64,000 nucleotides of DNA from a virus (lineage: Duplodnaviria; Caudoviricetes): IMG/VR virus record IMGVR_UViG_3300032327_001202, positions 18,828 through 82,827 of that record, one strand, 5' to 3'. Positions 2,149-18,164 of this stretch are shown piece after piece. The stretch's first letter is position 1; each line of letters begins with the position of its first letter. Below the pieces are notes generated by a model that had not been told where the DNA came from, searched no databases, and saw only the letters and a program-made list of their open reading frames with translations. The translations under genes and the position numbers were made by a program.

Positions 2149-2242
2149 AATTAATATATATTATTTATATAATATAGTTTTTAAAAATTTTTTTTTGTTG
2201 AAAAATTTTTATATATTTGTATAAATAAAACAAAAAACAAAA

Positions 2243-3511
2243 ATGATAATCGAAAAAAATTTAGTGGAAATAATCCAAAATATTGATAGTCCTTTAAGTA
2301 AAACTTTTCTAAAATTAGAAAAGTTAAATCTTACTTCTATAGTACAACTATCAAATAAAGATTGGCATTTCCAAGTAGTAAACGGTAAGAAAAAAGAAAC
2401 CGTAAAAATGTTTAAATTTATCAATACTTATTTCCCAAATAAGTTTGAAAAAGATGAAGTTATTAGTTTTTGTGAAAAAATTATAACTAATTCTAAACCT
2501 AAACAAGTTACTACTAAAATAGAACCAAGACCATTTAAATATGAGCCTCTTAATGTAAGAGATACATTTATTTCATTAGTTACTGAAACTTATCCTCATG
2601 GATTTGAAGATGAAGTTTTAGCTTATCTTCCACAAGATCTAGAAATAGATGATTTTGGTAATTACTATAAAGTAATTGGTGATTCTGAAACAGTTTTTAC
2701 GAGTCATTTAGATACTGCTTTAAGAGAAAAATCTGATATTAATTTATATTCATTCTTTGTTAAAGAACAAGAGTTTATTAAAACAGATGAAACAACTATA
2801 TTAGGAGCTGATGATAAAGCCGGTGTTACTATCATGTTATATATGATGGCTAATAATGTTCCTGGTTTATACTATTTCTTCTTAGGTGAAGAAAGAGGGG
2901 GTATTGGATCTAAAAAGGTTGCTAATGATTTTATAGACAATCCACTTTTAAAAGGTAAAAAAAGAATGGTATCTTTTGATAGAAAGAATTATTATTCTAT
3001 CATAACATCACAATTAGGAGAAGCTTGTTGCTCAAATGAGTTTGCAGATGGATTATGTAATGAATTAAATAAAAATGGTTTGCATATGAAACCTGATGAT
3101 ACAGGTATCTTTACAGACTCTGCTAATTTTGTGGATTATATTCCTGAATGTACTAATATTTCTATTGGATATTTCAACGAGCACACTCATAAAGAGATTC
3201 AAAATATTTCTTATTTAGAAATATTGGCTAAGTGTTTAGTTGATGTAGATTGGGAAAACTTACCAACTGTTAGAAAGGCAGGTATTAGTGAACAATCTAT
3301 AATTAAACATGGTGACAAAATTAAGAAGTTAAGAAAGTTAGGTATTAAAAATACGCTTCATATTAAGGAGTTAAAGGGTAATTTATATACTATCTTAGAG
3401 GTAGATAATAAAAATCCTATGGGAATATATGAAGATTTATCTCTTTTAAGAGAAACTTTAGGAAGTATAGATTTAAGATTTTACAATTCAAATATTTTAA
3501 TAAAATTATAA
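2243..3511 (+). CDS. M28/M20-family zinc peptidase
   Basis: Metal-ligand motifs FTSHLDT, GADDKAG, GEERG, TDSA, GYFNEHT. Confidence 0.85.
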   Translation: MIIEKNLVEIIQNIDSPLSKTFLKLEKLNLTSIVQLSNKDWHFQVVNGKKKETVKMFKFINTYFPNKFEKDEVISFCEKIITNSKPKQVTTKIEPRPFKYEPLNVRDTFISLVTETYPHGFEDEVLAYLPQDLEIDDFGNYYKVIGDSETVFTSHLDTALREKSDINLYSFFVKEQEFIKTDETTILGADDKAGVTIMLYMMANNVPGLYYFFLGEERGGIGSKKVANDFIDNPLLKGKKRMVSFDRKNYYSIITSQLGEACCSNEFADGLCNELNKNGLHMKPDDTGIFTDSANFVDYIPECTNISIGYFNEHTHKEIQNISYLEILAKCLVDVDWENLPTVRKAGISEQSIIKHGDKIKKLRKLGIKNTLHIKELKGNLYTILEVDNKNPMGIYEDLSLLRETLGSIDLRFYNSNILIKL

Positions 3512-3768
3512 TGCAAGAGACAGTAGATAAAATGGTAGATTACTTAAATGAAAATTTTTCAGAGGAGTTCTACGTAGATTTTGAAGAAGATGAAAAAAAT
3601 AAAGTAGTCTTTATTCAGTTTTTGATGGATAAAGTTATTAGCATTGATAATGCTATAGATTTTTTTAGCAGAATCAATGATAGTAAAACTTTGTGTAAAA
3701 AACAAGAGTTTGAGTTATGGAAAACAAAGGAAGAAGAACCTATTATTCAAATAAGTTATATTATGTAA
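3511..3768 (+). CDS. Hypothetical protein
   Basis: 85-aa ORF translationally coupled to the peptidase (TAATG overlap). Confidence 0.7.
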   Translation: MQETVDKMVDYLNENFSEEFYVDFEEDEKNKVVFIQFLMDKVISIDNAIDFFSRINDSKTLCKKQEFELWKTKEEEPIIQISYIM

Positions 3769-3770
3769 TT

Positions 3771-3986
3771 ATGAGTACAATTAATGTAAAAATACAAACA
3801 AATAGAATTATTGGCGGTCTTAGAGATTGTATTAAATTATTTTTACAAGAAACTAAAGAAAAAGTATTAACTTTAGAAGTTTTAAAAAAATATAATTTTG
3901 AAGAAAAAGATTTATATGATATGAATCTAACTAAATCAAAAATAAGAGATTTTAAAATTAATAAAATATTAAAATTATGCCAGTAG
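3771..3986 (+). CDS. Small protein, RDxxI-motif family member 1
   Basis: Likely start ATG 3771 (just after the stop at 3768); C-terminus KKYNFEEKDLYDMNLTKSKIRDFKINKIL shared with the four downstream ORFs. Confidence 0.75.
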   Translation: MSTINVKIQTNRIIGGLRDCIKLFLQETKEKVLTLEVLKKYNFEEKDLYDMNLTKSKIRDFKINKILKLCQ

Positions 3987-4216
3987 TTTCATTAGATTTC
4001 GCAAGTTTATATCCTAGACCAATGGGTGATTTTTCTATGGGAGATGATTTTGATAAATCTACTAAGTATATATTAGATAGAAATAAAGATCATGATTATG
4101 TAGATCTTTTATTACTTGAAAAGTATGGGTTGGTAACAAGTAGTTTATTTGATTTTCCTTTTGTTCAAACAAAGGTAAGAGATTATGAGATAAATAAAAT
4201 ATTAGATAGTATATGA
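3977..4216 (+). CDS. Small protein: PolB motif A-like peptide (VVSLDFASLYP) plus RDxxI C-terminal domain
   Basis: N-terminus MPVVSLDFASLYP matches family-B polymerase DxxSLYP; C-terminus KVRDYEINKIL. Confidence 0.8.
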   Translation: MPVVSLDFASLYPRPMGDFSMGDDFDKSTKYILDRNKDHDYVDLLLLEKYGLVTSSLFDFPFVQTKVRDYEINKILDSI

Positions 4217-4467
4217 GTGATATAATCAGACAAGAACTTAAAAAAGTAATAAATAGTTTTTATGGAAGAAATCCCGATATAGAAACTGATTTTACTAAAT
4301 CTATAAAGTTTTTATTATCTAAATTGGATGTTAAGTTTTTAACATACGAGTTTGTAGAAAAGATAAAAGATAAATATGATATAGTATATACGGATTTGTC
4401 TGATTTTTCATTAGTTCAGATAAAGGTAAGGGATTATGAAATAAATAAAATCTTTAAAAGTATCTAA
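4213..4467 (+). CDS. Small protein: PolB motif B-like peptide (KKVINSFYG) plus RDxxI C-terminal domain
   Basis: QELKKVINSFYG matches family-B KxxxNSxYG; C-terminus KVRDYEINKIF. Confidence 0.75.
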   Translation: MSDIIRQELKKVINSFYGRNPDIETDFTKSIKFLLSKLDVKFLTYEFVEKIKDKYDIVYTDLSDFSLVQIKVRDYEINKIFKSI

Positions 4468-4497
4468 ACAAAAAAAATTATTTTTTTATCACTTTAT

Positions 4498-4791
4498 ATG
4501 AAAAGTAAAAGTGATTTAAAGATAAAATATGGTGATAACATCATAGACGAAATAGAAAATAAATTAGCAAAAGAAATATCTGATAGTATAAACAAGGATA
4601 TACTTAATAGTTTTAAGAAACCAAGTAAAATTTATCTACTTTCTTTAGTTGAAAATATTAATAATAAAGAAGGTGAGTTATTTATACTAATGGAAAAATA
4701 TGGTATTATAGAAAATGATTTATATAGCCTTGAAATTGTTAAATCAAAAATAAGAGAATATAATATAGATTTAATCTTAAAAAATAATTAA
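4498..4791 (+). CDS. Small protein: major-capsid-like helix plus RExxI C-terminal domain
   Basis: SDLKIKYGDNIIDEIENKLAKEISDSINKDIL aligns ungapped to this window's MCP segment EDIKANTGMDIVQKMESILVNELSQTISKQII; C-terminus KIREYNIDLIL. Confidence 0.75.
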   Translation: MKSKSDLKIKYGDNIIDEIENKLAKEISDSINKDILNSFKKPSKIYLLSLVENINNKEGELFILMEKYGIIENDLYSLEIVKSKIREYNIDLILKNN

Positions 4792-4807
4792 CTTTTTCAA
4801 AAATTTT

Positions 4808-5107
4808 TTGTATATTTGTATGGAAGAAAAAAATATAAATTATAAATCTTATATAGAGGAACAAATAAGTAAAAGTATTTCTTATTCTGATTATATATGT
4901 GATGAGTTAGATAAAACTATAGATTATGCTGATTACTTAAGTGATAAACTTGAAAGTGAAGTATTTTTAGTAAAATTACACACTGATATGAATTTATCAG
5001 ATATAATAGAAATGTATGATTTATCAGAAAAAGATCTTCATAAATTGAGTATAGTTAAGTTAAAAGTAAGAGATTATAAAATAAATTTATTACTAAAACA
5101 AGATTAA
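4808..5107 (+). CDS. Small protein: two scaffold-like 14-aa repeats plus RDxxI C-terminal domain
   Basis: KSISYSDYICDELDKTIDYADYLSDKLE vs protease/scaffold KSIKYSEYVAENLDKNIAYAEYIAENLD (14/28 identical by hand); C-terminus KVRDYKINLLL. Confidence 0.8.
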   Translation: MYICMEEKNINYKSYIEEQISKSISYSDYICDELDKTIDYADYLSDKLESEVFLVKLHTDMNLSDIIEMYDLSEKDLHKLSIVKLKVRDYKINLLLKQD

Positions 5108-5136
5108 AAAATATAATATATACATTACAAATACAT

Positions 5137-5495
5137 GGGGATGAAATGATTTAGATTCATGGAATTAATGGTAGAGATGCAAACATCGGATAATCCTAAC
5201 CCGATTAATAAATTGGATTAAAGTCTAAACGACAAAACAAATACAGTAGCAAGCCGTGAAGAATTAGTAGCCGCTCTACAAAACAACATCTTAAAGGTAA
5301 ACGAAGTAGCTTTTGCTTAATTGACAAAAACAAAAAGGTTTCCAAATAGTTAAAAATCTATTCAAAAATTTTCGGATTTGTTAGGGGTTCGTTAAAAACT
5401 AAATTAGTTTGTTATTTTATAAAAAAGTAACTACGTTTGTAAATGAGTTTCTATGATTAACCAGAGAAGACCCGAATTCGCCTTCGGCATCTCCA
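5137..5495 (+). ncRNA. ssrA: tmRNA (transfer-messenger RNA)
   Basis: 5' GGGGATG pairs with 3' CATCTCC(A), giving a 7-bp acceptor stem with the G3:U70 alanine determinant; T-arm GAC-CCGAA-TTCGCC-TTCGG; internal tag ORF 5225/5228-5320 ending ...VAFA*; terminator immediately downstream; CCA not encoded (CTA). Confidence 0.92.
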
Positions 5496-5500
5496 CTAAT

Positions 5501-5526
5501 AAATACCCCTTGATTGGGGTATTTTT
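5501..5526 (+). terminator. Rho-independent terminator after tmRNA
   Basis: AAATACCCC-TTGATT-GGGGTATTT followed by T-run. Confidence 0.8.
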
Positions 5527-5538
5527 AATTAAAATAAT

Positions 5539-5958
5539 ATGAATGATGATAACTTTGATAAATACCTAAAAATTAGTAATTTATCTTTAATAATTAAAAA
5601 AATAGGAGATAGAATAGATTTTATTGATAAAAATAAAATCTATGAAAATATAGATGGGTGTATTCGAGAATCTAATATAGATTTTATATTAGAACAACAA
5701 AAAGATTTTTATTTTCTTGATATAGAATACTTCAGAGGAAGAAACCCATTAAATAATAATTATTATCCTATAAATTATAAATTAATAGAAAGTGATATGA
5801 TTAAAATAAAAAAATTTAATCAATTATCAAAATCTAAAATAATTATTGTAGGAAACATTACTATACAAAAATTATATTATTCCGCAGACTTTATTGTAGA
5901 ATATATTGATTCTAAACCAAAAATTATTAAAAATAGATATTTTCCAATTTATGATTAA
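5539..5958 (+). CDS. Hypothetical protein with internal RExxI motif
   Basis: 139-aa ORF containing IRESNIDFILE; C-terminal SADFIVEY...KIIKNRY weakly recalls the DnaB/gp41 helicase C-terminus. Confidence 0.65.
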   Translation: MNDDNFDKYLKISNLSLIIKKIGDRIDFIDKNKIYENIDGCIRESNIDFILEQQKDFYFLDIEYFRGRNPLNNNYYPINYKLIESDMIKIKKFNQLSKSKIIIVGNITIQKLYYSADFIVEYIDSKPKIIKNRYFPIYD

Positions 5959-6277
5959 AGTAAGTTTAACCGCAAAAGAACAAATAATTAAATTAAAAAG
6001 TGAAGAACCTAATACAGGACAATACCTTAGAGTAGGGGTAAAGGGTGGAGGATGTAGTGGATTATCATACATCTTAGAATTTGATGATATATATGATAAA
6101 AAAATTGATGAACTTTTTGAAGATAATGATATAAAAATTATATGTGATAAAAGAAGTCTTCTTTATATATTTGGAACCGAACTAGTATTTTCAGGTGGTT
6201 TAAATGGTAAAGGATTCGAGTTTATCAATCCCAATGCAAGTAGAACTTGCTCTTGTGGAGAAAGTTTTTCAGTTTAA
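5951..6277 (+). CDS. iscA: HesB/IscA-family Fe-S cluster assembly accessory protein
   Basis: LRVGVKGGGCSGLSY and C-terminal CSCGESF; likely start MIKVS at 5951 rather than 5906. Confidence 0.95.
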   Translation: MIKVSLTAKEQIIKLKSEEPNTGQYLRVGVKGGGCSGLSYILEFDDIYDKKIDELFEDNDIKIICDKRSLLYIFGTELVFSGGLNGKGFEFINPNASRTCSCGESFSV

Positions 6278-6289
6278 AAAAATAATAAT

Positions 6290-6466
6290 ATGAACAAAGA
6301 TAAAATAGATTTATATAATTTTTTAGTAGATAACCCTTACTTTTCTAAGGAATATGTTATGGGAAAGATATTTAATTTTTCTTTTTCTGATATACAATAT
6401 ATCAATAATTTAGAACTAATGGAAAAAAGAAATAAAAAAATAGATGATTTATTAAATGAAGATTAG
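6290..6466 (+). CDS. 58-aa ORF (not in track): portal C-terminal-like peptide plus RNKKIDDLL
   Basis: Manual translation MNKDKIDLYNFLVDNPYFSKEYVMGKIFNFSFSDIQYINNLELMEKRNKKIDDLLNED*; PYFSKEYVMGKIFNFSFSDI aligns with portal PYFHVDFLVDKIMKLTPEEI. Confidence 0.75.
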   Translation: MNKDKIDLYNFLVDNPYFSKEYVMGKIFNFSFSDIQYINNLELMEKRNKKIDDLLNED

Positions 6467-6617
6467 TATTGATGAAATAATAACTTATGATATAGTAGCA
6501 TCTCCAGCACTTGGAAGTGCTAAACTAGTATATGATGAAGAGCTTAAACGAAAGAAAATATTAGAGGATATGGAGAGGAGAAATAAGATTTTAGATGAGT
6601 TATTAAAAGAGGATTAA
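6456..6617 (+). CDS. 53-aa ORF (not in track): prohead-protease-like peptide plus RNKILDELL
   Basis: Manual translation MKISIDEIITYDIVASPALGSAKLVYDEELKRKKILEDMERRNKILDELLKED*; TYDIVASPALGSA vs protease TYDIVADPGFASA (9/13 identical). Confidence 0.8.
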   Translation: MKISIDEIITYDIVASPALGSAKLVYDEELKRKKILEDMERRNKILDELLKED

Positions 6618-6638
6618 ATTAATTTAATCCTCTTTTTT
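6605..6638. terminator. Perfect 32-bp palindrome / bidirectional terminator
   Basis: AAAAGAGGATTAAATT-AATTTAATCCTCTTTT between convergent ORFs. Confidence 0.75.
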
Positions 6639-6641
6639 ATT

Positions 6642-6947
6642 TTAATATTCTTTTAAATCTGAGATTTCTAAATCATCTAATACAGATATTGCTTTATCTA
6701 ATCCACTTTTCCAATTAGGCCATTTTCTTCTATGCATTTCAACTGCTTCTTCTAAATCATGATATAAATCATCATTTCCAACTAAGTTATAATATTTATT
6801 TTTAAGTTTAGAAACTAATTGATATAAAACAGCATTATCAGTTTCATTTTTTAAGGCTTCAATTTCGGCTTTAAGTTCAGGAATAAACTCTTTTTTTAAT
6901 TGCCAATTACCTTCAAATAAATGAAGATATTTTAATTTTTTTTCCAT
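6642..6947 (-). CDS. Hypothetical protein with CTS-like leader
   Basis: 101-aa ORF starting MEKKLKYLHLFEG. Confidence 0.7.
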   Translation of the reverse strand: MEKKLKYLHLFEGNWQLKKEFIPELKAEIEALKNETDNAVLYQLVSKLKNKYYNLVGNDDLYHDLEEAVEMHRRKWPNWKSGLDKAISVLDDLEISDLKEY

Positions 6948-6949
6948 GT

Positions 6950-7618
6950 TTATTTTAATTTTTTATCAAGGATTTTAACTAATCCTTCCCCTATTGTAAA
7001 ATGTATATTTTTTAATACATCGCTTTTTATATTTAAAAAATCTTCTAAAAAAGTAAAGTTAAAATCATATTCATATTCTTCATCTATTTTTACTTTTTTA
7101 ATACTAAGTTTTAGTTCATAAGAATCATTTACACTAATAACAAAATCAAATTGTAAATCTTCACATTTTGTAATCTTAAACTTAGGCTCGTATATAACAT
7201 CAAATATAGTATAATCAGTTCTATTAACTGTTTTAAGATAATGATTTAAAAGTAATGCTGGTGTTTCAACAAAATCTGATAATAATTGTAAATCTTTTCC
7301 AAAATTATTTGATTTTATAATCTTCTTTAATTTATATTCTAATTCATTTATATCTTTAAACAATTCTTTATGATAAACACAATTTATATTATATAAGTAA
7401 GTAAAATAATTTTCTGTTATTTCAGTTTTTTCTAAATTTGTTTTAAATATAAATTTAGTATGTAAAACAAATGTTTCTTCTATTAATAAACTATGAATAG
7501 ATATAACTAAATTATAATAATCATCATGTTTTTCATATACATTTTTATATGTTAAAAAACGTCCTTCTGTAAAAACGGATTTAAATAGTTCCTCTATTTC
7601 AGATATTTTAATTGCCAT
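6950..7618 (-). CDS. Hypothetical protein
   Basis: 222-aa ORF co-oriented and closely spaced with neighbours. Confidence 0.75.
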   Translation of the reverse strand: MAIKISEIEELFKSVFTEGRFLTYKNVYEKHDDYYNLVISIHSLLIEETFVLHTKFIFKTNLEKTEITENYFTYLYNINCVYHKELFKDINELEYKLKKIIKSNNFGKDLQLLSDFVETPALLLNHYLKTVNRTDYTIFDVIYEPKFKITKCEDLQFDFVISVNDSYELKLSIKKVKIDEEYEYDFNFTFLEDFLNIKSDVLKNIHFTIGEGLVKILDKKLK

Positions 7619-7619
7619 A

Positions 7620-8372
7620 TTATTTAAATTGTTTATCGTAAGTTTTCTTTCTTAGATTAATAAGTTTTTCTATATATTTATTTCTTCTCAATAACTTAAA
7701 TACTAAGTTTTCTAATGAATACTCACCATCTTTTTCTATACCAGATTTTCTACCATCTTTAATTTTTTTCCAAATTTTCTTCCATTTAAACTGAAAATTT
7801 TCATAATTAGCCACATTACCTGATTCTATTTCTAAATCATCTATACTATCCATTATATCTTCTGCTTTAAGTTTAATTAAATGATAATCAATTTCAAAAT
7901 TCTTTCTATCTGGTTTTTGTACCCAATAGTTATATAGTATAGAATATACTCCACTATTTTTTCTTATCTTTTCTATGTCTGTTTGGCAGTTAAGTTCTAA
8001 TTCATATCCTGCTATTATTATATCATGATCTTCATTCCATAATTTAGAATATGTTTTAAGATAATTTTGAACTAAATTTTCATCGTCATTAATTTCTGTA
8101 AAATCTAAAACTATATGTAAATCTATATCTGACCATTCTGACCAATTATAATTGGCTAATGAACCTGTGAATATAATATCTTTAACCTTAAAATCTATTT
8201 TTAAATCATCTTTTATTTCATCAATAAAATCATTCCCTATTTGGAGTAATTCTTCTTTTACTTCATGATTTAATTTAAATTTATGCCATATTTTCGTATT
8301 TAAATAATCTTTTAACTTAAATGATTTTAATGGAGTTAAATCCTTTTTATGGTCATTATATTTTTTTATCAT
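7620..8372 (-). CDS. Pol-beta-superfamily nucleotidyltransferase
   Basis: FTGSLANYNWSEWSDIDLHIV = GS...DxD motif; likely start MIKKYN at 8372 (track start 8468 overlaps the divergent gene). Confidence 0.8.
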   Translation of the reverse strand: MIKKYNDHKKDLTPLKSFKLKDYLNTKIWHKFKLNHEVKEELLQIGNDFIDEIKDDLKIDFKVKDIIFTGSLANYNWSEWSDIDLHIVLDFTEINDDENLVQNYLKTYSKLWNEDHDIIIAGYELELNCQTDIEKIRKNSGVYSILYNYWVQKPDRKNFEIDYHLIKLKAEDIMDSIDDLEIESGNVANYENFQFKWKKIWKKIKDGRKSGIEKDGEYSLENLVFKLLRRNKYIEKLINLRKKTYDKQFK

Positions 8373-8424
8373 AACTAAAACTTTTTTGTGTATAAGTATA
8401 TATATTAAAAAATAATACCTAATT

Positions 8425-8951: not shown

Positions 8952-8984
8952 AAAAAAGAGGACTTATTTAGTCCTCTTTTTTTT
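8952..8984. terminator. Bidirectional terminator
   Basis: AAAAAAGAGGACT-TATTT-AGTCCTCTTTTTT between convergent genes. Confidence 0.75.
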
Positions 8985-9461
8985 ACCTCTTTTATTTATT
9001 GGAGGTGTATAATTTGTTGATGTGGATTGGGTAGATGGCGTAGTGTAAGCATAATCAAAATAAAATAAATTAGGGCTGGAACCTGTTTTATATAATTCAT
9101 GTTCTTCTTCTTTAAATTCCTCAAATTCTTTGTTTTCTAAAATAGAATCTAATTTTCTATCACGATTAATGGTAGCAACTTCTCGTTTAATTCTTTCTTT
9201 TTCCTCCTCTGAATTACCAAAACCTTTCATAGGGTTAACAGTAACTAAATCTATCCCTATTGTTTGAGCGGCTATTTTTTTAGCAATTGGTAATAAACTT
9301 GGAAAAGATTCATTTGACTGTGTCCCTACTAATGTAGTATCCATATTTATTTCATTTTTTAAATGAAGATTAGCATATTCGGTCATCCAGTTATTTACTA
9401 CAGATTGTGTAGATGATACATGATTCAAATCCCATTTATCTATTTTTATATTTGGTTTCAT
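8964..9461 (-). CDS. Truncated paralog of the major capsid N-terminal region with an inserted RDRKLDSIL helix
   Basis: WMTEYANLH vs MCP WMAEYAEYH; LLPIAKKIAAQTIGIDLVTVNP vs LLPVAMKIAAQTIGLDLVAVKP (17/22); LFYFDYAY vs LVYVDFQY after the insert. Confidence 0.85.
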   Translation of the reverse strand: MKPNIKIDKWDLNHVSSTQSVVNNWMTEYANLHLKNEINMDTTLVGTQSNESFPSLLPIAKKIAAQTIGIDLVTVNPMKGFGNSEEEKERIKREVATINRDRKLDSILENKEFEEFKEEEHELYKTGSSPNLFYFDYAYTTPSTQSTSTNYTPPINKRGKKKRTK

Positions 9462-9464
9462 ATT

Positions 9465-10568
9465 TTATATTATTTTTTCTTCTAAAATTATTTCTATATT
9501 TTGTTCATAAGAAATTTTTAATAATTCTTTTTTATTTTCCAAAACCCAATTATCTTTTAATTGGTCATTTCTTTTTACAACCTCAAATTGCTCTTCACCA
9601 CCAAAAAATTCTCTTGGCTCATAATGTTGAATACCATTAAACTCTATAAATAACCCCTTTTTAGGTAAATAAAAATCAAATCTATATGTAGAATTACCTA
9701 TTTTTTGTTTATATTCTTTAATGTATTCTATACCTTTTATATCTAACCAATTCTTTATTTGACGTTCTCCTTTTGATGAAGAACAATTAGGACAACCACA
9801 TTTATGATGTATAATATAATTAGGTTTAGCACTCCAAATATAATCACATACTTTACATTTATGTTTTAAATAAAAAAGAGACCCTATATATTTTTCACCA
9901 TCTACTAATTCTATATCATTTGGAAGAAGAGATAAATATTTTGTATGAGAAAATTTTCTACCAGAACAAGATGAACACCCTAATACTATATTAGCTATAT
10001 TTTTAGGCGTAGTGTTAAATTTCTCACCACATTTTAAACATTCAAAATCATGATTTTCTCTAAAATTAGTGTAATTTCCTATTAATTTTATATTCCTTTC
10101 TATTAATAATTCATTAAATTTATTAATATAGTTATATGATTTTTTGCTTAATAAATTTTTATCCTTTTTACATTCACAAATATATTTTGTGATTTGTTTA
10201 GGTGTTTTATTTATTATTTCATTACATATTTTACATTCAAAATTTATATACGTATTAGTGTTAATATAATTATCTACTCTAATAAAATCTAAATCTTTTA
10301 TTCTTAAATCAAATTCTTCATTTGTTATTTTTCTACCTAATGAAGAAAAACTATCGTTTGTTTCTTTTTTACATTCACATAATGTTCGATTATATAATTT
10401 AGGCTTTTTCATACTTTTTTTACCACATAACTTACATTCAAATTCTATTGGTGTTTCTGCATTAATATAATTACCGATTCTTATATAATCAGAATCTTTA
10501 ATTTTTAAATCAAAATCATTATTAGTAAATGCTTTTGGTCCTGACTTTTCGTTCTTTTTTATATACAT
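9465..10568 (-). mobile_element. Free-standing homing-endonuclease-like gene (CxxC repeats plus C-terminal PD-(D/E)xK/Vsr-like domain)
   Basis: Repeated FECKxC units, GCPNCSSSKGE, RFDFYLP..FIEFNGIQH; directly downstream of the capsid gene. Confidence 0.8.
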
Positions 10569-10667: not shown

Positions 10668-12410
10668 TTAGTTAAGGTAGCCATTAGCATCATTAACGTA
10701 GATAGTCATAAATTGTTTTTGTGGGAAGAAACCTAATTCAGCCACAGCATATCTTGATCTTAAAATCATTCTTGGAGCAAATGTTGCTTCTGACATGATT
10801 GAGATAGATTGTGCCATGAGGAATGGCACGAAACAGATACCTGGTTGATCAGGATTGTTTTTACGTCCGATTAAGATTCTGTTGTCATTGTATTTCATGT
10901 AAGGATCTACGTAGATAGTGATATCACCGATTTGACCTACAGGGTACATTTGACCGTTTGTGTTTAATTTAGATTTAAGTGGGTTAATTGTGTAACCTGC
11001 AACATCCATTAAAGCTGCTGCTAATCCACCATTTGTTACCGCATATTGTGCTGGTCCAACACGTCCTTCAGTTGCGATGTAGTTAGAAGCATGTACCATT
11101 TTAGTGATAAGCTTTCTTTGTACAGCGTGTGTAGTTTCACCACCTGGTCCTGCTTGAACATAAAGAGTATCTAAGTCAAATATAGTTTGTCCAGAGATGT
11201 TAGCGTTAGCATTTAAACCTGTGTATAAAGGAGCAGTTTGTCTGTTTATATTACCCATATCAAATACTTTAGCAATAATTTGCTTAGAGATAGTTTGAGA
11301 AAGTTCGTTTACAAGGATTGATTCCATTTTTTGAACGATATCCATACCAGTGTTAGCTTTGATATCTTCAATTTCTGTTCTACGTAATGCAGAACTTACT
11401 TCTACTGTACCAACTGTAATTGATTTAGAAGAAATTTTTGGTCCAATTGCACCTGCATATGTGCTTTCTTCTTCTTGACGAGCCATTGGGTATTGCCCAC
11501 CATTACCATTAAAGTTTGTAACATATCCTGGTAATTGATCTTCAAGAGCAGATACTAAGCTTATGCTTATAGCATTTGAGTTAGTAGACTGTCCAAATAA
11601 GTAGTTAATTTCTGAAACCATTGAACCACCTGCTGTAGCACCTGTAGTTGAAACGTTAAATGAGTTGTTTGCTTGATTTAAGCCATAAACAACACCACCA
11701 CCATATGCACCACCTGCCGCATTTGATTCTTTGTAAGCTCTGAATATAGGCTGTCCATCAATACGAGAGAAACCTAAGAACTCTAAGTAACCAAATTTGT
11801 TAGTTGGTTCAGTTGTAGTACTAGATACTGAAGTTGATGCAGTGAAACCTGTCCAAATTCTTGTACCAAATGCTAAACCACCTTGGTTTTGTTGAATACC
11901 TGCAGTAGTTAAAGCGCTATTAATAGCTGTATTTAATGAAGCACTTAAACCTGTAGAAGTTAAAGTAGCATTCCAAGCAATTTTGAATACTTGAGGTTTT
12001 GTGTTAAAGTTTGAAAGATTTAAATCGTCATATTGAAAATCAACATAAACTAAATCAATCTTTGGACCTGGAGTTGGCTTTACAGCTACTAAATCAAGAC
12101 CAATTGTTTGTGCAGCAATTTTCATAGCTACTGGTAATAGGTTTTGTCCTAAATCACCTGAACCTATGTTTGATGAACCATAGTTTGCACCAATTGTTGT
12201 ACCTGGGTAAGTACCAACTTGTGGAGCTAAAACAGCACCTAAACCACCTGTAGAAGCATTAAGGTAAGCGTTTTCGTTTATTGCATGGTATTCAGCATAT
12301 TCTGCCATCCATGAATATTTTTCTCTGTCCTCTTTGTTAACACCAATGTTTTCTAAAATTGGAGTCCATTTGTTAAGAGCTTTTTGTAAGTCAATTCTAA
12401 CTTGTGACAT
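10668..12410 (-). CDS. gp23: Major capsid protein (T4 gp23-like)
   Basis: KWTPILE N-terminus, EDIKANTGMDI..E..L..E helix, IYVDPY, F.P.M.L.SRYAV C-terminal motif; adjacent to protease and portal. Confidence 0.9.
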   Translation of the reverse strand: MSQVRIDLQKALNKWTPILENIGVNKEDREKYSWMAEYAEYHAINENAYLNASTGGLGAVLAPQVGTYPGTTIGANYGSSNIGSGDLGQNLLPVAMKIAAQTIGLDLVAVKPTPGPKIDLVYVDFQYDDLNLSNFNTKPQVFKIAWNATLTSTGLSASLNTAINSALTTAGIQQNQGGLAFGTRIWTGFTASTSVSSTTTEPTNKFGYLEFLGFSRIDGQPIFRAYKESNAAGGAYGGGVVYGLNQANNSFNVSTTGATAGGSMVSEINYLFGQSTNSNAISISLVSALEDQLPGYVTNFNGNGGQYPMARQEEESTYAGAIGPKISSKSITVGTVEVSSALRRTEIEDIKANTGMDIVQKMESILVNELSQTISKQIIAKVFDMGNINRQTAPLYTGLNANANISGQTIFDLDTLYVQAGPGGETTHAVQRKLITKMVHASNYIATEGRVGPAQYAVTNGGLAAALMDVAGYTINPLKSKLNTNGQMYPVGQIGDITIYVDPYMKYNDNRILIGRKNNPDQPGICFVPFLMAQSISIMSEATFAPRMILRSRYAVAELGFFPQKQFMTIYVNDANGYLN

Positions 12411-12490
12411 ATTTTTTAATTTTTTTTATTAATCTATATATTAAATGCTAAAAGTCTCTTTTTGCTATTTTTATAGATTTGTTTGTTTTT

Positions 12491-14695
12491 TTAAATGTTT
12501 TTGAATCTTTCTAAGATTGATTTGAAATCTGAATCAGATAGTTTATCTTCTTGTATTAAACTGTCATGAGAAATCATTTTTTTAGTTGATTCATTCTTTT
12601 TTAAGTTTCTAGTTAACCAAAAATGTTCAATTTTAGCTTCTGAATCCAATTCAGGATATAGTTTAGCTTGTGAAAGAATTGATTTTTTAGAACTTTCATT
12701 TGTTACTTCCCAAATTGATTTTATATTTTCTGGCATCAATCTGATTAGTCTTTCTTCTAATGATTCATTTTTAATAGAAAGTGCTTCTTGTATTAATTTT
12801 ATAACTTCTGAACTTGTGAAATAACTCTTTTCGTTTATGTAAAGTTTTACTTGTTCTTGCTCTTCGTTTGTTAAGCTATAATAGCTATCAACTTGAGACT
12901 TGTTTAAAAATTTTAAGAAATGTAGATCGTTTGTTTCAGAAACTTTACGTTTTCTAGCTTCTTCGATTAATAAATCTATTTTTTTACTTAAATCTGAATC
13001 TGTATTTTTATTTTCTAAGTAGTCTTCGTCTGCTTTAGATACATCTGGTAAACCTTCTAATTTTACTTCTTTACCTAATAATTCATCTTTGAAATCTGCT
13101 TCATTTGGAACCGCAGTATCAACTTTTTGTTCTTCTGGTAATTCAACTTCTGTTAATTCAGTATAATCTAAAGAAACTGGAGTTGCTTCATCAGCTTCAC
13201 CCGCTTTTTCAACACCATCTTCACCATGAAGTTCATCCTCACCACCTTCTAAATAGTTATCTGATTTATTATCAACATCATTTTCACCAAAACCATATTC
13301 TTCTAAAGTAGGAATAAGATTTGATTCATTACTTTCAAATAATTTAGTACCATTAACTTTTTCAGAAATTAAACCTGTATAAGATACAGCTTTATCTAAG
13401 TTTTCAGCAATGTATTGAGAATAAGAAATGTTATCATCAAGGTGTTCTGCTATATATTCAGAATATTTAATATTACCTTCTAAGTTTTCAGCGATATACT
13501 CAGAATAAGCAATATTACCATCTAAGTTTTCAGCTAAATATTCAGCATAAGAAATATTTCTATCTAAGTTTTCAGCTAAGTATTCTGCATAAGAAATATT
13601 CTTATCAACATTCTCAGCAATATATTCAGAATAAGAAATGTTTTTGTCTAAATTTTCAGCGATGTATTCAGAGTAAGAAATGTTTCTATCTAAATTTTCA
13701 GCGATGTATTCAGAATAAGAAATGTTCTTATCTAAGTTTTCAGCAATATATTCTGCATAAGCGATATTTTTATCTAAGTTTTCAGCAACATATTCAGAAT
13801 ATTTAATTGATTTGTTTAAGTTTTCAACTAAATAATCGTTATGTTCGATTAATCTATCAGTTGTATCTTTAAGAGATTTGTTCTCAGAAACAACAACTTG
13901 AATTTTTTCTGCTAAATAATCTAAGTATTTAACAACTTGAGAATTAGTTTTATTTAATTCTTCATAGTAGTTTAAAAGTTTTTCTAATTTAACTGGTTCT
14001 AAATTACCAGATTTAAGAGCACTTTTAACTTCTTTTTTAGTTGCAGCAATTTCATTAACTATATATTTCGAATAGTCTGACAATTGATCTTTCGTTACGA
14101 ATTCATTTTTGTTCATGTTAAATAATTCATTTATTTTTGATTCATTTGATACTTCATATATTCTGAAGTTAGCATCATTTGAATAATTTAAAGACTCATT
14201 TATAGAAGACATTCTCGCAGAAGCAAATCCCGGATCTGCAACTATATCATAAGTAAATAATTTTTTTAGTGATACTGTACCATCAGCTTCTGTAATACCA
14301 GCAGCTCTTGAAGATACAAATATAGGGCAACCATCATCAACTAAAGCCTTAGCTTCTTTTCCCCAATAGGTATTTAATAATTTAATTTGTCCTTCAACTA
14401 CATTTTTTTCTTTAACATAATATGCGGTTTTGATTAAATGGGATGCACGGGATAGTGAAGTGTCAAAGACGTCGGGGTGGTCAAACTCACCATAAACTAC
14501 TCCCATAGTAGAAATCCTGCTATTAAGTTCTTCTAAACAAGGCAAGAATCTTTCAGGAGTATATACTCTTTCATTCCTATTTTTAACCATAAACTCAGTA
14601 AAAGTACCTCCTAAAAGATAATCTTTTCTAGCATCTACACCTTCGTTCATTTTTAAAGGATTTGTATTATTTTCAATGATTAATACTGGCTTCAT
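12491..14695 (-). CDS. gp21: Prohead protease (gp21-like) fused to a scaffold-like region
   Basis: NRNERVY, YGEFDHP, VSSRAAG, TYDIVADPG protease motifs in the N-terminal ~170 aa; coiled-coil, repeat and acidic C-terminal region. Confidence 0.9.
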   Translation of the reverse strand: MKPVLIIENNTNPLKMNEGVDARKDYLLGGTFTEFMVKNRNERVYTPERFLPCLEELNSRISTMGVVYGEFDHPDVFDTSLSRASHLIKTAYYVKEKNVVEGQIKLLNTYWGKEAKALVDDGCPIFVSSRAAGITEADGTVSLKKLFTYDIVADPGFASARMSSINESLNYSNDANFRIYEVSNESKINELFNMNKNEFVTKDQLSDYSKYIVNEIAATKKEVKSALKSGNLEPVKLEKLLNYYEELNKTNSQVVKYLDYLAEKIQVVVSENKSLKDTTDRLIEHNDYLVENLNKSIKYSEYVAENLDKNIAYAEYIAENLDKNISYSEYIAENLDRNISYSEYIAENLDKNISYSEYIAENVDKNISYAEYLAENLDRNISYAEYLAENLDGNIAYSEYIAENLEGNIKYSEYIAEHLDDNISYSQYIAENLDKAVSYTGLISEKVNGTKLFESNESNLIPTLEEYGFGENDVDNKSDNYLEGGEDELHGEDGVEKAGEADEATPVSLDYTELTEVELPEEQKVDTAVPNEADFKDELLGKEVKLEGLPDVSKADEDYLENKNTDSDLSKKIDLLIEEARKRKVSETNDLHFLKFLNKSQVDSYYSLTNEEQEQVKLYINEKSYFTSSEVIKLIQEALSIKNESLEERLIRLMPENIKSIWEVTNESSKKSILSQAKLYPELDSEAKIEHFWLTRNLKKNESTKKMISHDSLIQEDKLSDSDFKSILERFKNI
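13390..13850 (-). repeat. Coding tandem repeat, about 10-11 copies of 42 bp (14 aa: NISYSEYIAENLDK)
   Basis: Directly visible in the translation and DNA of the protease/scaffold gene. Confidence 0.95.
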
Positions 14696-14831: not shown

Positions 14832-15236
14832 ATGTATAAAATTAATTTTGGTGATGAGAAAGTTTTTTTAAATTATTTAAAAGGTTTTGAAAATAAGTAC
14901 CATAAAAGACAAAAAGTATTAAATGAGATTTTAGAAATTAATGATAAAGATGATGAAGCATTAAGCTACTGGGATTTTACTGATAATAGTATAATATATG
15001 GTCAATTTTTTGATAAAAGATATGATAAAGATACATCTTTAAGTAATGTTTCACATTATGTTAAAAACATAGAAAAAATAAATGGGGAATATTTCGCAGA
15101 AATAAAAATATTAACTACTTATTGGGGTATAGCATTATTAGATTTAATTAATGCTGGAATAAAATTTCATTTAGAATGTGTCTATCATACTTATGAAAAT
15201 AAAAAAATAATTAGACTAGATATAAATGATTATTAG
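14832..15236 (+). CDS. Degenerate (likely inactive) paralog of the prohead protease domain, with an RQKVLNEIL motif
   Basis: IIYGQF..DTSLSNVSH..IKILTTYWG..LINAG aligns with protease VVYGEFDHP..DTSLSRASH..IKLLNTYWG..LVDDG; the HP and SSR motifs are absent. Confidence 0.75.
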   Translation: MYKINFGDEKVFLNYLKGFENKYHKRQKVLNEILEINDKDDEALSYWDFTDNSIIYGQFFDKRYDKDTSLSNVSHYVKNIEKINGEYFAEIKILTTYWGIALLDLINAGIKFHLECVYHTYENKKIIRLDINDY

Positions 15237-15564
15237 CAGAGAAATAGAAATAAAAGTAAATAACACAAATATAGGTTATTTACATAATTTAGGTTATGAG
15301 GTTAATAGAGGAGAATTATTATCAATTCCAATTGAATTACTTAGTCCTGGTAGTCATTACAAAATAAGTTGTAAATGTGATAAGTGTGGAATTATTAAAG
15401 ATATTTTATTTAAAAATTATATTAAATATGGAAATAAATGGGGAGAATATTTTTGTAGAAAATGTAGTGAAGATAAAAGAAAAAAATCTTTACAATTAAG
15501 TCATGGAGTAGATTACCCTATTCAAAATAAAGAAATACGAAATAAAATAAAGTTTAAAAACTAA
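15226..15564 (+). CDS. Zinc-ribbon protein resembling the N-terminal DNA-binding part of homing endonucleases
   Basis: CKCDKCG...YFCRKC and HGVDYP (compare KYGVEH repeats in 20258-21946); no nuclease domain. Confidence 0.6.
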   Translation: MIISREIEIKVNNTNIGYLHNLGYEVNRGELLSIPIELLSPGSHYKISCKCDKCGIIKDILFKNYIKYGNKWGEYFCRKCSEDKRKKSLQLSHGVDYPIQNKEIRNKIKFKN

Positions 15565-16394: not shown

Positions 16395-18128
16395 TTAAAA
16401 TTCAAACTCACCACCGCCAGCTTCACCACCAGCTTCAGGTGCAGGAGGATTTTCACCACCAGCTTCAGGTTCCGAAGCAGCTTCACCACCTTCAGGAGGA
16501 GTTTCACCACCCGCTTCAGGAACAGGAGCTTCAGGAGAAGGTCCTGCTTCTCCACCACCGCCTCCACCTTCTGGCATTCCACCTCCAGCAGCAGTTGATG
16601 ATCCAACCCCTTTTGATTTAATCCAATAAGCCTTATTTTCTTCAATTTCTTCGGGAGTTAATTTCATAATTTTATCAACAAGGAAATCAACATGGAAATA
16701 AGGTTGTTCACCATTCATAATTCCTAATAAAGTAGTCATTATGGTAGCTCTAGATTCCATATTTGCTAATTTTTTCCATTCTTCAAAAATCTGATTTGTA
16801 TTGAAAATAACATCAACTTGGTTAAGAAATACTTCATCATGTCTTAATTCAGGAAATTCCATACACATTTGAAGTTTAATTGGTTTAACAATTAGTTCTT
16901 TAATAATTGAACGTAAACGGCTAATAAAATTACCAAAGGTTATTTCATCTCTTGTCATTTCATTTGCAGCAGTCACTAACTGACCCCCACCATTTTCTTT
17001 TTCAAATCTTTGGAAAGGTATCTTACTTGCTCTTTTCAAACAATTCATAAACCAATTTAACATATTATCTTCATTAAGATTATGTCCTTGTGGAGAAATC
17101 AATTCCATATTTGGTGTACCTTGATCACCTTCTGGAAACCATATTTGTTTATTATATGGTAAGTGTTTACTACCACTAATAGTTAATGTACCTAATGAAT
17201 CATCAAATTCTACATCTTCAGAATAATCAGCTATTAATTGTGCAATTTGTTCCTCAGCTCTTTGTTTTGGTAAACCTTTAATAGGTATTGTAAACTTTTG
17301 ATAAACCATCGCATTAACTACGTTAAACATAATTCTTGTTTGTTCCATAATCTTTAATTGATTATATGGTTTAATAAGTCCTTCTACATAAGAAGTTTCG
17401 GAATAATCATGTTGAGTAGAATATGATATAAATACTATTTGCGAATCTAAGAAAATTCTTCTTAAAGCAGGATCTTCTGGATATTGTATCCAAATATTTC
17501 CTATACTTGGTTCATAAGCTGGAACAAGAGTTTCAGGTCTCATTCTATTAAAACTAATAATATTCTTTTTTGTATCATCCCATATAATTTCAACTGCGGC
17601 ATAACCATCAATTAAAAAATCTTTAGTCATATTCCAAGCAGTAATACCATCAGAAAAACCAAAACGACTGTATATTTTTTCAAAAAATTCTTGATATTTA
17701 TCTCGTATATCTTGTGAATAACTATTATTTAAAGGACTTGGAGAACAGAAATCTTTATCTTCATCATACACAATAATTTCATCGGCTAACACAGATACAA
17801 ATTCACGTATTTCATCCTTAATAGAATATTCTCTTAATATTCTTCTTTTATCTGAATACGCTTTATCTAAATAAGGAATTGATTTTTTGTTTAAAACTTG
17901 AGCGACTGCTCTTTGAGAAAAGAAAGCATACATAGAATCCGCTCTTTGAGCAAGAGGGTCTTCATTCATACCGACACCGATAGAATTTCTAAGTATCATA
18001 TCTTCATATTTTAGACCTAACCCTGAAAGGGATCTAAGAAGACGATTAAATATACCTTTATTTTCAACAGCAGAAGGTATAATATTTGGGTTTGTATTGC
18101 TATTTATTGGATTATATGATCCTGGCAT
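16395..18128 (-). CDS. gp20: Portal protein (T4 gp20-like) with Gly/Pro/Glu-rich C-terminal tail
   Basis: 577 aa in the head module; KRASKIPFQR, EMTRDEITFGNFISRLR motifs typical of gp20. Confidence 0.9.
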   Translation of the reverse strand: MPGSYNPINSNTNPNIIPSAVENKGIFNRLLRSLSGLGLKYEDMILRNSIGVGMNEDPLAQRADSMYAFFSQRAVAQVLNKKSIPYLDKAYSDKRRILREYSIKDEIREFVSVLADEIIVYDEDKDFCSPSPLNNSYSQDIRDKYQEFFEKIYSRFGFSDGITAWNMTKDFLIDGYAAVEIIWDDTKKNIISFNRMRPETLVPAYEPSIGNIWIQYPEDPALRRIFLDSQIVFISYSTQHDYSETSYVEGLIKPYNQLKIMEQTRIMFNVVNAMVYQKFTIPIKGLPKQRAEEQIAQLIADYSEDVEFDDSLGTLTISGSKHLPYNKQIWFPEGDQGTPNMELISPQGHNLNEDNMLNWFMNCLKRASKIPFQRFEKENGGGQLVTAANEMTRDEITFGNFISRLRSIIKELIVKPIKLQMCMEFPELRHDEVFLNQVDVIFNTNQIFEEWKKLANMESRATIMTTLLGIMNGEQPYFHVDFLVDKIMKLTPEEIEENKAYWIKSKGVGSSTAAGGGMPEGGGGGGEAGPSPEAPVPEAGGETPPEGGEAASEPEAGGENPPAPEAGGEAGGGEFEF

Positions 18129-18164
18129 AAATATATATTTTTTTTATTGAATATATATTAAATA

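Follow-up and report, generated by a model that had tools for sequence, protein, structure and literature searches.

Small proteins that consist of a single segment related to the interaction element of a larger protein are described in eukaryotes as microProteins, for example those of the LITTLE ZIPPER and Id types, and are thought to engage the larger relative or its partners (PMC9638782). According to the annotation of phage T4 (AF158101), the small ORFs alt.-1 and alt.-2 go back to an old duplication of the start of a gene coding for a head-packaged protein, with a new stop and a new start. The T4 proteins gp67 and gp68 and the internal proteins are also small, and co-assemble with portal, protease and scaffold inside the prohead (PMC9958956), while Inh is a phage protein annotated as restraining the head protease gp21. 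Even in T4, it is still an open question by what means the prohead core acquires its small proteins, and what silences the protease until assembly is complete (PMC9958956).

The two overlapping genes considered here, ORF58 and ORF53, resemble microProteins in that they code for only 58 and 53 aa and show significant homology to one segment each of a larger protein, residues 469-506 of the portal and residues 141-163 of the prohead protease, respectively. They differ from the eukaryotic examples by their phage host and by having a portal and a prohead protease as parents, as well as by the combination of two fragments with one added helix in overlapping genes, known here from sequence. The T4 alt.-1/alt.-2 case is different, since a single gene was split in two without a common tail, and its sequence is unlike that of the pair. 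The genes for gp67 and gp68 sit between those of the portal and the protease, whereas the pair is found at a distance of 6-10 kb, encoded on the opposite strand. Inh has 226 aa, is not a fragment of a protease and has no similarity to ORF53, for which an inhibitory activity of the same kind had earlier been proposed. Comparisons of the pair with gp67, gp68 and Inh by hhalign all gave E-values of at least 0.18.

The window, that is the whole stretch of 64,000 nucleotides analysed, covers bases 18828-82827 of an 82.8-kb IMG/VR virus fragment rated as about 15% complete, and has a G+C content of about 24%. Its sequence identifies the source as a Mahaphage-type huge phage. The closest database DNA is that of 634-642-kb uncultured phages, which belong to the Mahaphage clade and have Bacteroidetes as predicted hosts (PMC7162821), and a 633-kb ENA scaffold (L090) is fully syntenic with the region of the pair. 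The pair is carried by a subclade of these phages. An alternative genetic code was ruled out, as standard-code ORFs tile the window and stop reassignment gains little. The head module, annotated with Pfam and PHROGs, lies on the minus strand and includes a T4-type portal (16395-18128, -), a gp21-type protease fused to a repeat-rich scaffold in a protein of 734 aa (12491-14695, -) and a Gp23-type capsid protein (10668-12410, -). In the 734-aa protein, the scaffold-like region is long and contains about ten copies of a 14-residue repeat in tandem as well as an acidic linker, and the portal ends in a low-complexity tail rich in Gly, Glu and Pro.

ORF58 (6290-6466, +; stop TAG) and ORF53 (6456-6617, +; stop TAA) share 11 nt (6456-6466, +), so that the start codon of ORF53 is found within the end of ORF58. 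Both were recovered from the ORF listing as the preliminary description had reported them, with the motifs that it had quoted, and the corresponding parental motifs are present in the portal and in the 734-aa protease-scaffold protein. Read from the sequences, the identity of the protease motif is 9/13, as had been claimed, and that of the portal motif is 6/20. The same description had made its proposal depend on conservation in relatives, and same-length homologues were found down to 42-46% identity. In a search of 5.8 billion proteins, all relatives of ORF53 have 53 aa (83-96% identity), and those of ORF58 have 57-78 aa, in addition to a truncated form of 35 aa; the longer ones, up to 78 aa, represent the same frame extended to an upstream start codon. 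With HMMER, run exhaustively on 1.8 billion representatives, three further and more distant relatives of ORF53 were obtained (51-53 aa, 46-61% identity). The ORF58 family comprises at least nine sequences of 57-60 aa that are 42-97% identical, and the ORF53 family 11 sequences of 51-53 aa, nearly gap-free, with identity down to 45%. Moreover, wherever a contig shows the gene surroundings (the window, L004/L005, L086-L089, L090, L091, L249 and L250), ORF58 and ORF53 are neighbours with an overlap of 8-11 nt, and the same convergent gene lies directly after them in all of these except L250, where a 525-aa gene is inserted in between. No match to Pfam or PHROGs was found for either ORF, and a tblastn search of 50,697 phage records yielded no small-ORF homologues of the pair; the only matches were protease genes of Lak-type and 634-642-kb phages, with E-values of about 4-5.

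ORF53 has a dN/dS of 0.20-0.24, the annotated frame being the lowest among the six. Compared with L086, the value is 0.24 for ORF53 and 0.44 for ORF58, against 0.10 for iscA. Stop triplets represent 8.5% of positions, hence a given frame of 53-58 codons would be open by chance in less than 1% of cases. Some copies are nevertheless interrupted. In L005, a TAA at codon 21 of ORF58 leaves a 35-aa form, a variant present on seven contigs, and the portal-like half is therefore not indispensable; in L089, an extra A in a poly-A run shifts the frame of ORF53. Taken as sequence evidence, these data establish ORF58 and ORF53 as genuine conserved genes under purifying selection, and indicate that ORFs of less than 60 codons in huge phages can be genuine genes under selection. 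The two genes had also been described as a translated mini-operon behind iscA. The conserved genes and the terminator stand, and translational coupling of ORF58 and ORF53 is probable; translation itself we infer from purifying selection and from the conserved length of the ORFs. The position behind iscA is incidental, as the related contig L249 has the pair without iscA. In addition, an IMG/VR synteny search found the pair at only two close relatives among 80 iscA loci, and iscA is thus no marker of the pair.

The resemblance of ORF53 to the protease, reported in the preliminary description as mimicry, turns out to be true homology. It concerns residues 3-25 (6462-6530, +), identified by both hhalign and BLASTP, and corresponds to residues 141-163 of the protease (14207-14275, -), a block that is invariant in 25 protease relatives. 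Residues 3-24 of ORF53 match residues 141-162 of the protease of the same phage by BLASTP with an E-value of 4e-6, and the profile of the 11 family members matches a 25-member protease profile by hhalign with a probability of 95.6% (E 1.2e-8). When all 121 ORFs of 60 aa or more in the record are compared with ORF53, the protease ranks first by four orders of magnitude. In 150 column shuffles no score exceeded 20 and the maximum with reversed decoys was 20.3, against observed scores of 28.8, 49.7 and 33.5, the 49.7 being that of the ORF53 family with the protease. Distant members of the family have P-G-F, like the protease, and the resemblance is thus ancestral rather than a quirk of the copy in the window. 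The homology of the N-terminal part of ORF53 to a conserved block of the protease is therefore solid at the sequence level.

The protease aligns with T4 gp21 through its His and Ser blocks, and the copied block lies about a dozen residues downstream of the Ser block. It is followed by an invariant I-N-E-S, whose counterpart in T4 gp21 is I-T-E-S, and this may represent a T4-type I-x-E processing site. ORF53 is not itself a gp21-type prohead protease (Peptidase_S77 / PHROG 207): its alignment is limited to protease residues 141-163, downstream of the DHP and VSSR blocks, and both the catalytic His (DHP) and Ser (VSSR) blocks are missing from it. One family member matches S80 at an E-value of only 0.14, and a protein-language-model look-up placed ORF53 near an S77-bearing cluster at rank 23, which is to be taken as a lead only. 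The copy and its parent have a DNA identity of 57%, indicating that the duplication of the protease fragment is old and was not refreshed by gene conversion; for the pair as a whole, recent gene conversion from the parent genes was ruled out by DNA identities of just 50-57%. Divergence is much faster in the copied segments than in the parental motif, which is invariant. In the AlphaFold2 (AF2) model, residues 1-26 of ORF53 have no secondary structure (pLDDT about 60). For the protease domain, the quality of the model (pLDDT 48) was insufficient to map the copied segment on it, and a PDB sequence search with the protease profile gave no match.

The portal-like segment of ORF58 covers residues 15-36 (6332-6397, +), as delimited by hhalign and by BLASTP of a divergent family member, and corresponds to portal residues 469-506 (16611-16724, -), which by BLASTP and mapping on T4 gp20 represent crown-domain helices. 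Here, the claim of a resemblance to the portal stands at the level of the family and falls for the copy of the window taken alone. BLASTP of the window ORF58 against the portal of the same phage gave no hit, and the ORF58 family reached a probability of only 5% against a single portal sequence by hhalign. Against a 26-member portal family, this rose to 54% (E 1.3e-4), and with an enlarged ORF58 family to 83.9% (E 7.8e-6). In addition, BLASTP aligns the most divergent family member (P0024, 60 aa) with residues 469-506 of the portal (15/39 identities, E 9e-6). ORF58 of the window fits the consensus of more distant portals no worse than its own portal. The origin of the N-terminal part of ORF58 from the portal crown, weak in the window copy, is thus supported by sequence comparison at the family level.

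When mapped on T4 gp20, the parental segment falls in the crown domain, which is made of three helices (residues 451-524) and is the innermost part of the portal (PMC4493910). ORF58 is not a T4-type portal (PF07230): the alignment extends over only about 22-38 residues, all in the crown region, the clip, stem and wing are missing, and it has no Pfam match. Short portal fragments were the nearest neighbours of ORF58 in an ESM-atlas protein-language-model look-up (0.88), again a lead only. Two other resemblances of ORF58 were discarded. A likeness to an extended frame of iscA (hhalign score 26.8), as strong as that to the portal when single sequences are compared, is due to chance, lying partly in a non-coding frame and disappearing when an iscA family profile is used, and a match with the N-terminal strand of the protease was not significant (E 0.012, 3.5%).

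Both proteins end in a common module, located at residues 32-58 of ORF58 (6383-6463, +; hhalign) and 27-53 of ORF53 (6534-6614, +; AF2 and alignment). What had been noticed as near-identical tails is a homologous module of 27 residues: over these 27 columns, the tails of the two families match by hhalign with a probability of 91.8% (E 7e-7), and at the DNA level 52/84 positions are identical. AF2 predicts a single helix at residues 27-52 of ORF53 with a pLDDT of about 90. K34, L36, R42, N43, I45, L49 and L50 are invariant in the ORF53 family, and at the position of the invariant Arg-Asn the ORF58 family has Arg followed by Asn or Asp. The spacing of hydrophobic residues, read from the alignments, may correspond to a short zipper. 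Derivation of this tail from protease, scaffold or portal sequences was rejected, the best score of about 19 being within the null range.

The perfect palindrome reported to close both ORFs is present (6605-6636) and qualifies as an intrinsic terminator by terminator scoring and folding energy. Within its 32 nt, a loop of 4 nt separates the arms of a 14-bp stem, which is accompanied by a T-run, and the folding energy is -14.9 kcal/mol (z = -3.5). The stem encodes the final codons of ORF53, and the terminator separates this gene from the convergent 101-aa gene (6642-6947, -). L086 and L089 have kept it, although their loop is shorter. The pair forms the 3' end of a 4.4-kb same-strand cluster, on the strand opposite to that of the head module, which includes a 422-aa gene, small ORFs, a tmRNA-like RNA and iscA, a peptidase-like gene being among its auxiliary genes. 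A Bacteroidota-like TAnnTTTG element lies upstream of the first gene of this cluster. The RNA (5137-5498, +) matches the full-length Rfam tmRNA model with an E-value of 1.4e-6 and 22 bits, below the gathering score, and ARAGORN identified no tmRNA or tRNA across the window.

Another element, TTAATATATA, occurs at 22 sites in the window for 5.0 expected and precedes many genes at a short distance, those of the capsid and the portal among them, for example at 12435-12444 (-) and 18152-18161 (-). It probably represents a phage promoter or leader element, since almost all its sites are 5-30 nt upstream of start codons and oriented with the gene. No enrichment of the T4 late-promoter octamer was observed in the window. 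TTAATATATA is missing from 2161-8398, around the pair, which casts doubt on co-expression of the pair with the head genes. The pair may be timed differently from these genes, and this is the main counter-argument to a purely morphogenetic role.

To our knowledge, no microProtein-type regulation of virus assembly has been described for phages. The explanation that we favour, as a possibility still short of probable, is that ORF58 and ORF53 would be a coupled pair of microProtein-like factors whose copied segments dock on partners of the portal crown and of the protease. Each protein is a two-part mosaic, with a copied N-terminal part of about 22-25 residues and the shared 27-residue amphipathic helix. 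The N-terminal part of ORF58 descends from the crown-helix region of the portal, and that of ORF53 from the last conserved block of a gp21-type protease, before the putative I-x-E site. The shared helices may pair both peptides, or tether them to one common partner, leaving the floppy copied segments to dock at the putative docking sites of the parental segments. The ORF58 helix could then insert in the portal crown or lie against it, and the ORF53 strand could add to the protease or compete at it, so that the pair might tune, bridge or block the contact of the portal with the protease-scaffold core, a mode of action attributed to eukaryotic microProteins with respect to their larger relatives. 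A two-peptide device, in which mimics of the portal crown and of the protease strand joined by a zipper-like helix would control docking and activation of the core on the portal, or sabotage these steps in rival phages, in a clade of the largest phages known, appears unlikely. If such a device exists, it would be one of a wider repertoire of mini-proteins made from capsid, scaffold, protease and DNA polymerase motifs. If the favoured reading is true, this would be the first microProtein-like regulation in a bacterial virus, and peptides made of a copied portal helix or protease strand with a handle would be natural probes of core and protease contacts.

The copied fragments may instead have been exapted, their similarity to head proteins being historical and their current role unrelated to heads, for example as early host-takeover or regulatory peptides. 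The location of the pair among small and auxiliary genes that are clustered on the other strand from the head genes points in this direction, as do the TAnnTTTG before the first gene of the cluster, the lack of TTAATATATA near the pair and the much faster divergence of the copies with respect to the parental motifs. However, the core of the copied motif survives divergence to 42-46% identity, which is hard to explain without selection on the motif in the small protein, and we consider exaptation somewhat unlikely. That the ORFs are mere relics or gene-call noise, i.e. chance frames in AT-rich DNA after old fragment duplications, is highly improbable: the interruption of ORF58 in one lineage, the frameshift of ORF53 at a poly-A run in one contig and the only moderately low dN/dS of ORF58 would be expected of relics, but length, adjacency and overlap are conserved over the same range of divergence, the dN/dS of 0.2 of ORF53 is the lowest of six frames, and the probability of a frame this long being open by chance is below 1%.

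The peptides could also be cargo of the prohead core, small internal head proteins whose helix would serve as a core-targeting signal and which would be cleaved or expelled at maturation. T4 proheads contain hundreds of copies of small core proteins whose mechanism of localisation is open (PMC9958956), and the paralogous fragments of the head module at 8964-9461 and 14832-15236 fit a loose pattern, R-[DENQ]-x-x-[IL]-[DN]-x-[IL]-L, which the tails of ORF58 and ORF53 fit as well. This explanation is quite unlikely, given that T4 gp67, gp68, gp22 and Inh show no similarity to the pair, that no conserved I/L-x-E site is found in the alignments of both families and that the genes are outside the head module. 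Alternatively, the pair could act as a weapon or a decoy, with dominant-negative fragments directed against co-infecting phages or baits for immune sensors of portal or protease. The copied pieces are indeed the most conserved motifs of hallmark proteins, ORF58 is no closer to its own portal than to the consensus of more distant ones, and mini-ORFs with motifs A and B of family-B polymerases are beyond the reach of an assembly role. Known sensors recognise folds, however, and such short fragments are unlikely ligands; no defence or exclusion context is present around the pair, which makes this reading improbable. With respect to these alternatives, the pair of microProtein-like factors docking on partners of the portal crown and of the protease remains our preferred, still tentative, interpretation.

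The pair is not the only case of small proteins related to fragments of large ones. A 99-aa ORF (4808-5107, +) carries the 14-residue repeat of the protease-scaffold protein in about three copies (BLASTP E 2.8e-10), and a 165-aa ORF (8964-9461, -) corresponds to the N-terminal part of the capsid protein (E 1.7e-8). A 134-aa ORF (14832-15236, +) matches protease residues 66-125 (E 8e-5). Finally, a 91-100-aa ORF present at 4498-4791 (+) and in orthologues (L086:1256-1555 and L090:4324-4596) matches positions 160-220 of the Gp23 Pfam model through its N-terminal 40-55 residues with up to 28 bits; the L090 orthologue, with 28.1 bits, is above the Gp23 gathering score. The presence in the record of these other small ORFs with head-protein fragments shows that fragment mini-proteins are a habit of the lineage, in which new small proteins have repeatedly arisen by duplication of fragments of hallmark genes.

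The capsid paralog lies downstream of an HNH endonuclease gene, within 8964-10568 (-); in L090, the paralog has 117 aa and the HNH gene is missing. The protease paralog is one of two ORFs (14832-15564, +) that lie, in opposite orientation, between the genes for portal and protease, and the adjoining 112-aa ORF is similar to the N-terminal part of a homing endonuclease (PHROG 12131). At 3717-5107 (+), five tandem small ORFs of 79-99 aa have different N-terminal halves and a constant C-terminal domain of 30 residues, with the pattern KY..DL..VK.K.R.Y.IN.IL. Orthologous arrays in L086, L089, L090 and L249 vary in their set of members, and in L249 the scaffold-repeat part and the constant domain are split into two overlapping ORFs. 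Two members of the array (3977-4216 and 4213-4467, +) start with copies of motif A (D-F-x-S-L-Y-P) and motif B (K-x3-N-S/G-x-Y-G) of family-B polymerases. These copies are retained in the orthologues, and the array members match the resident polymerase with an E-value of only 0.11.

The array resembles the pair by its organisation, a variable N-terminal part copying a motif of a large protein followed by a constant C-terminal helix. It differs in that its constant domains are not demonstrably homologous to the tails of the pair (hhalign E 0.1-0.4). A kinship of the tails with the constant domain was rejected on an HMM E-value of 1.8 and hhalign E-values of 0.11 and 0.42, and neither ORF58 nor ORF53 stood out in a scan with a PSSM of the array tail. 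The loose pattern mentioned above, which was defined post hoc, is shared by the tails and the array. At the position syntenic to the pair in the more distant 642-kb genome LR756502 (L252), two overlapping genes code for proteins of 261 and 92 aa (4392-5433, +). Both proteins have C-terminal helices of the R-D-x-x-I-x-x-V-L type, and the 261-aa protein, which has no Pfam match, resembles by eye the C-terminal half of a T4-type capsid protein.
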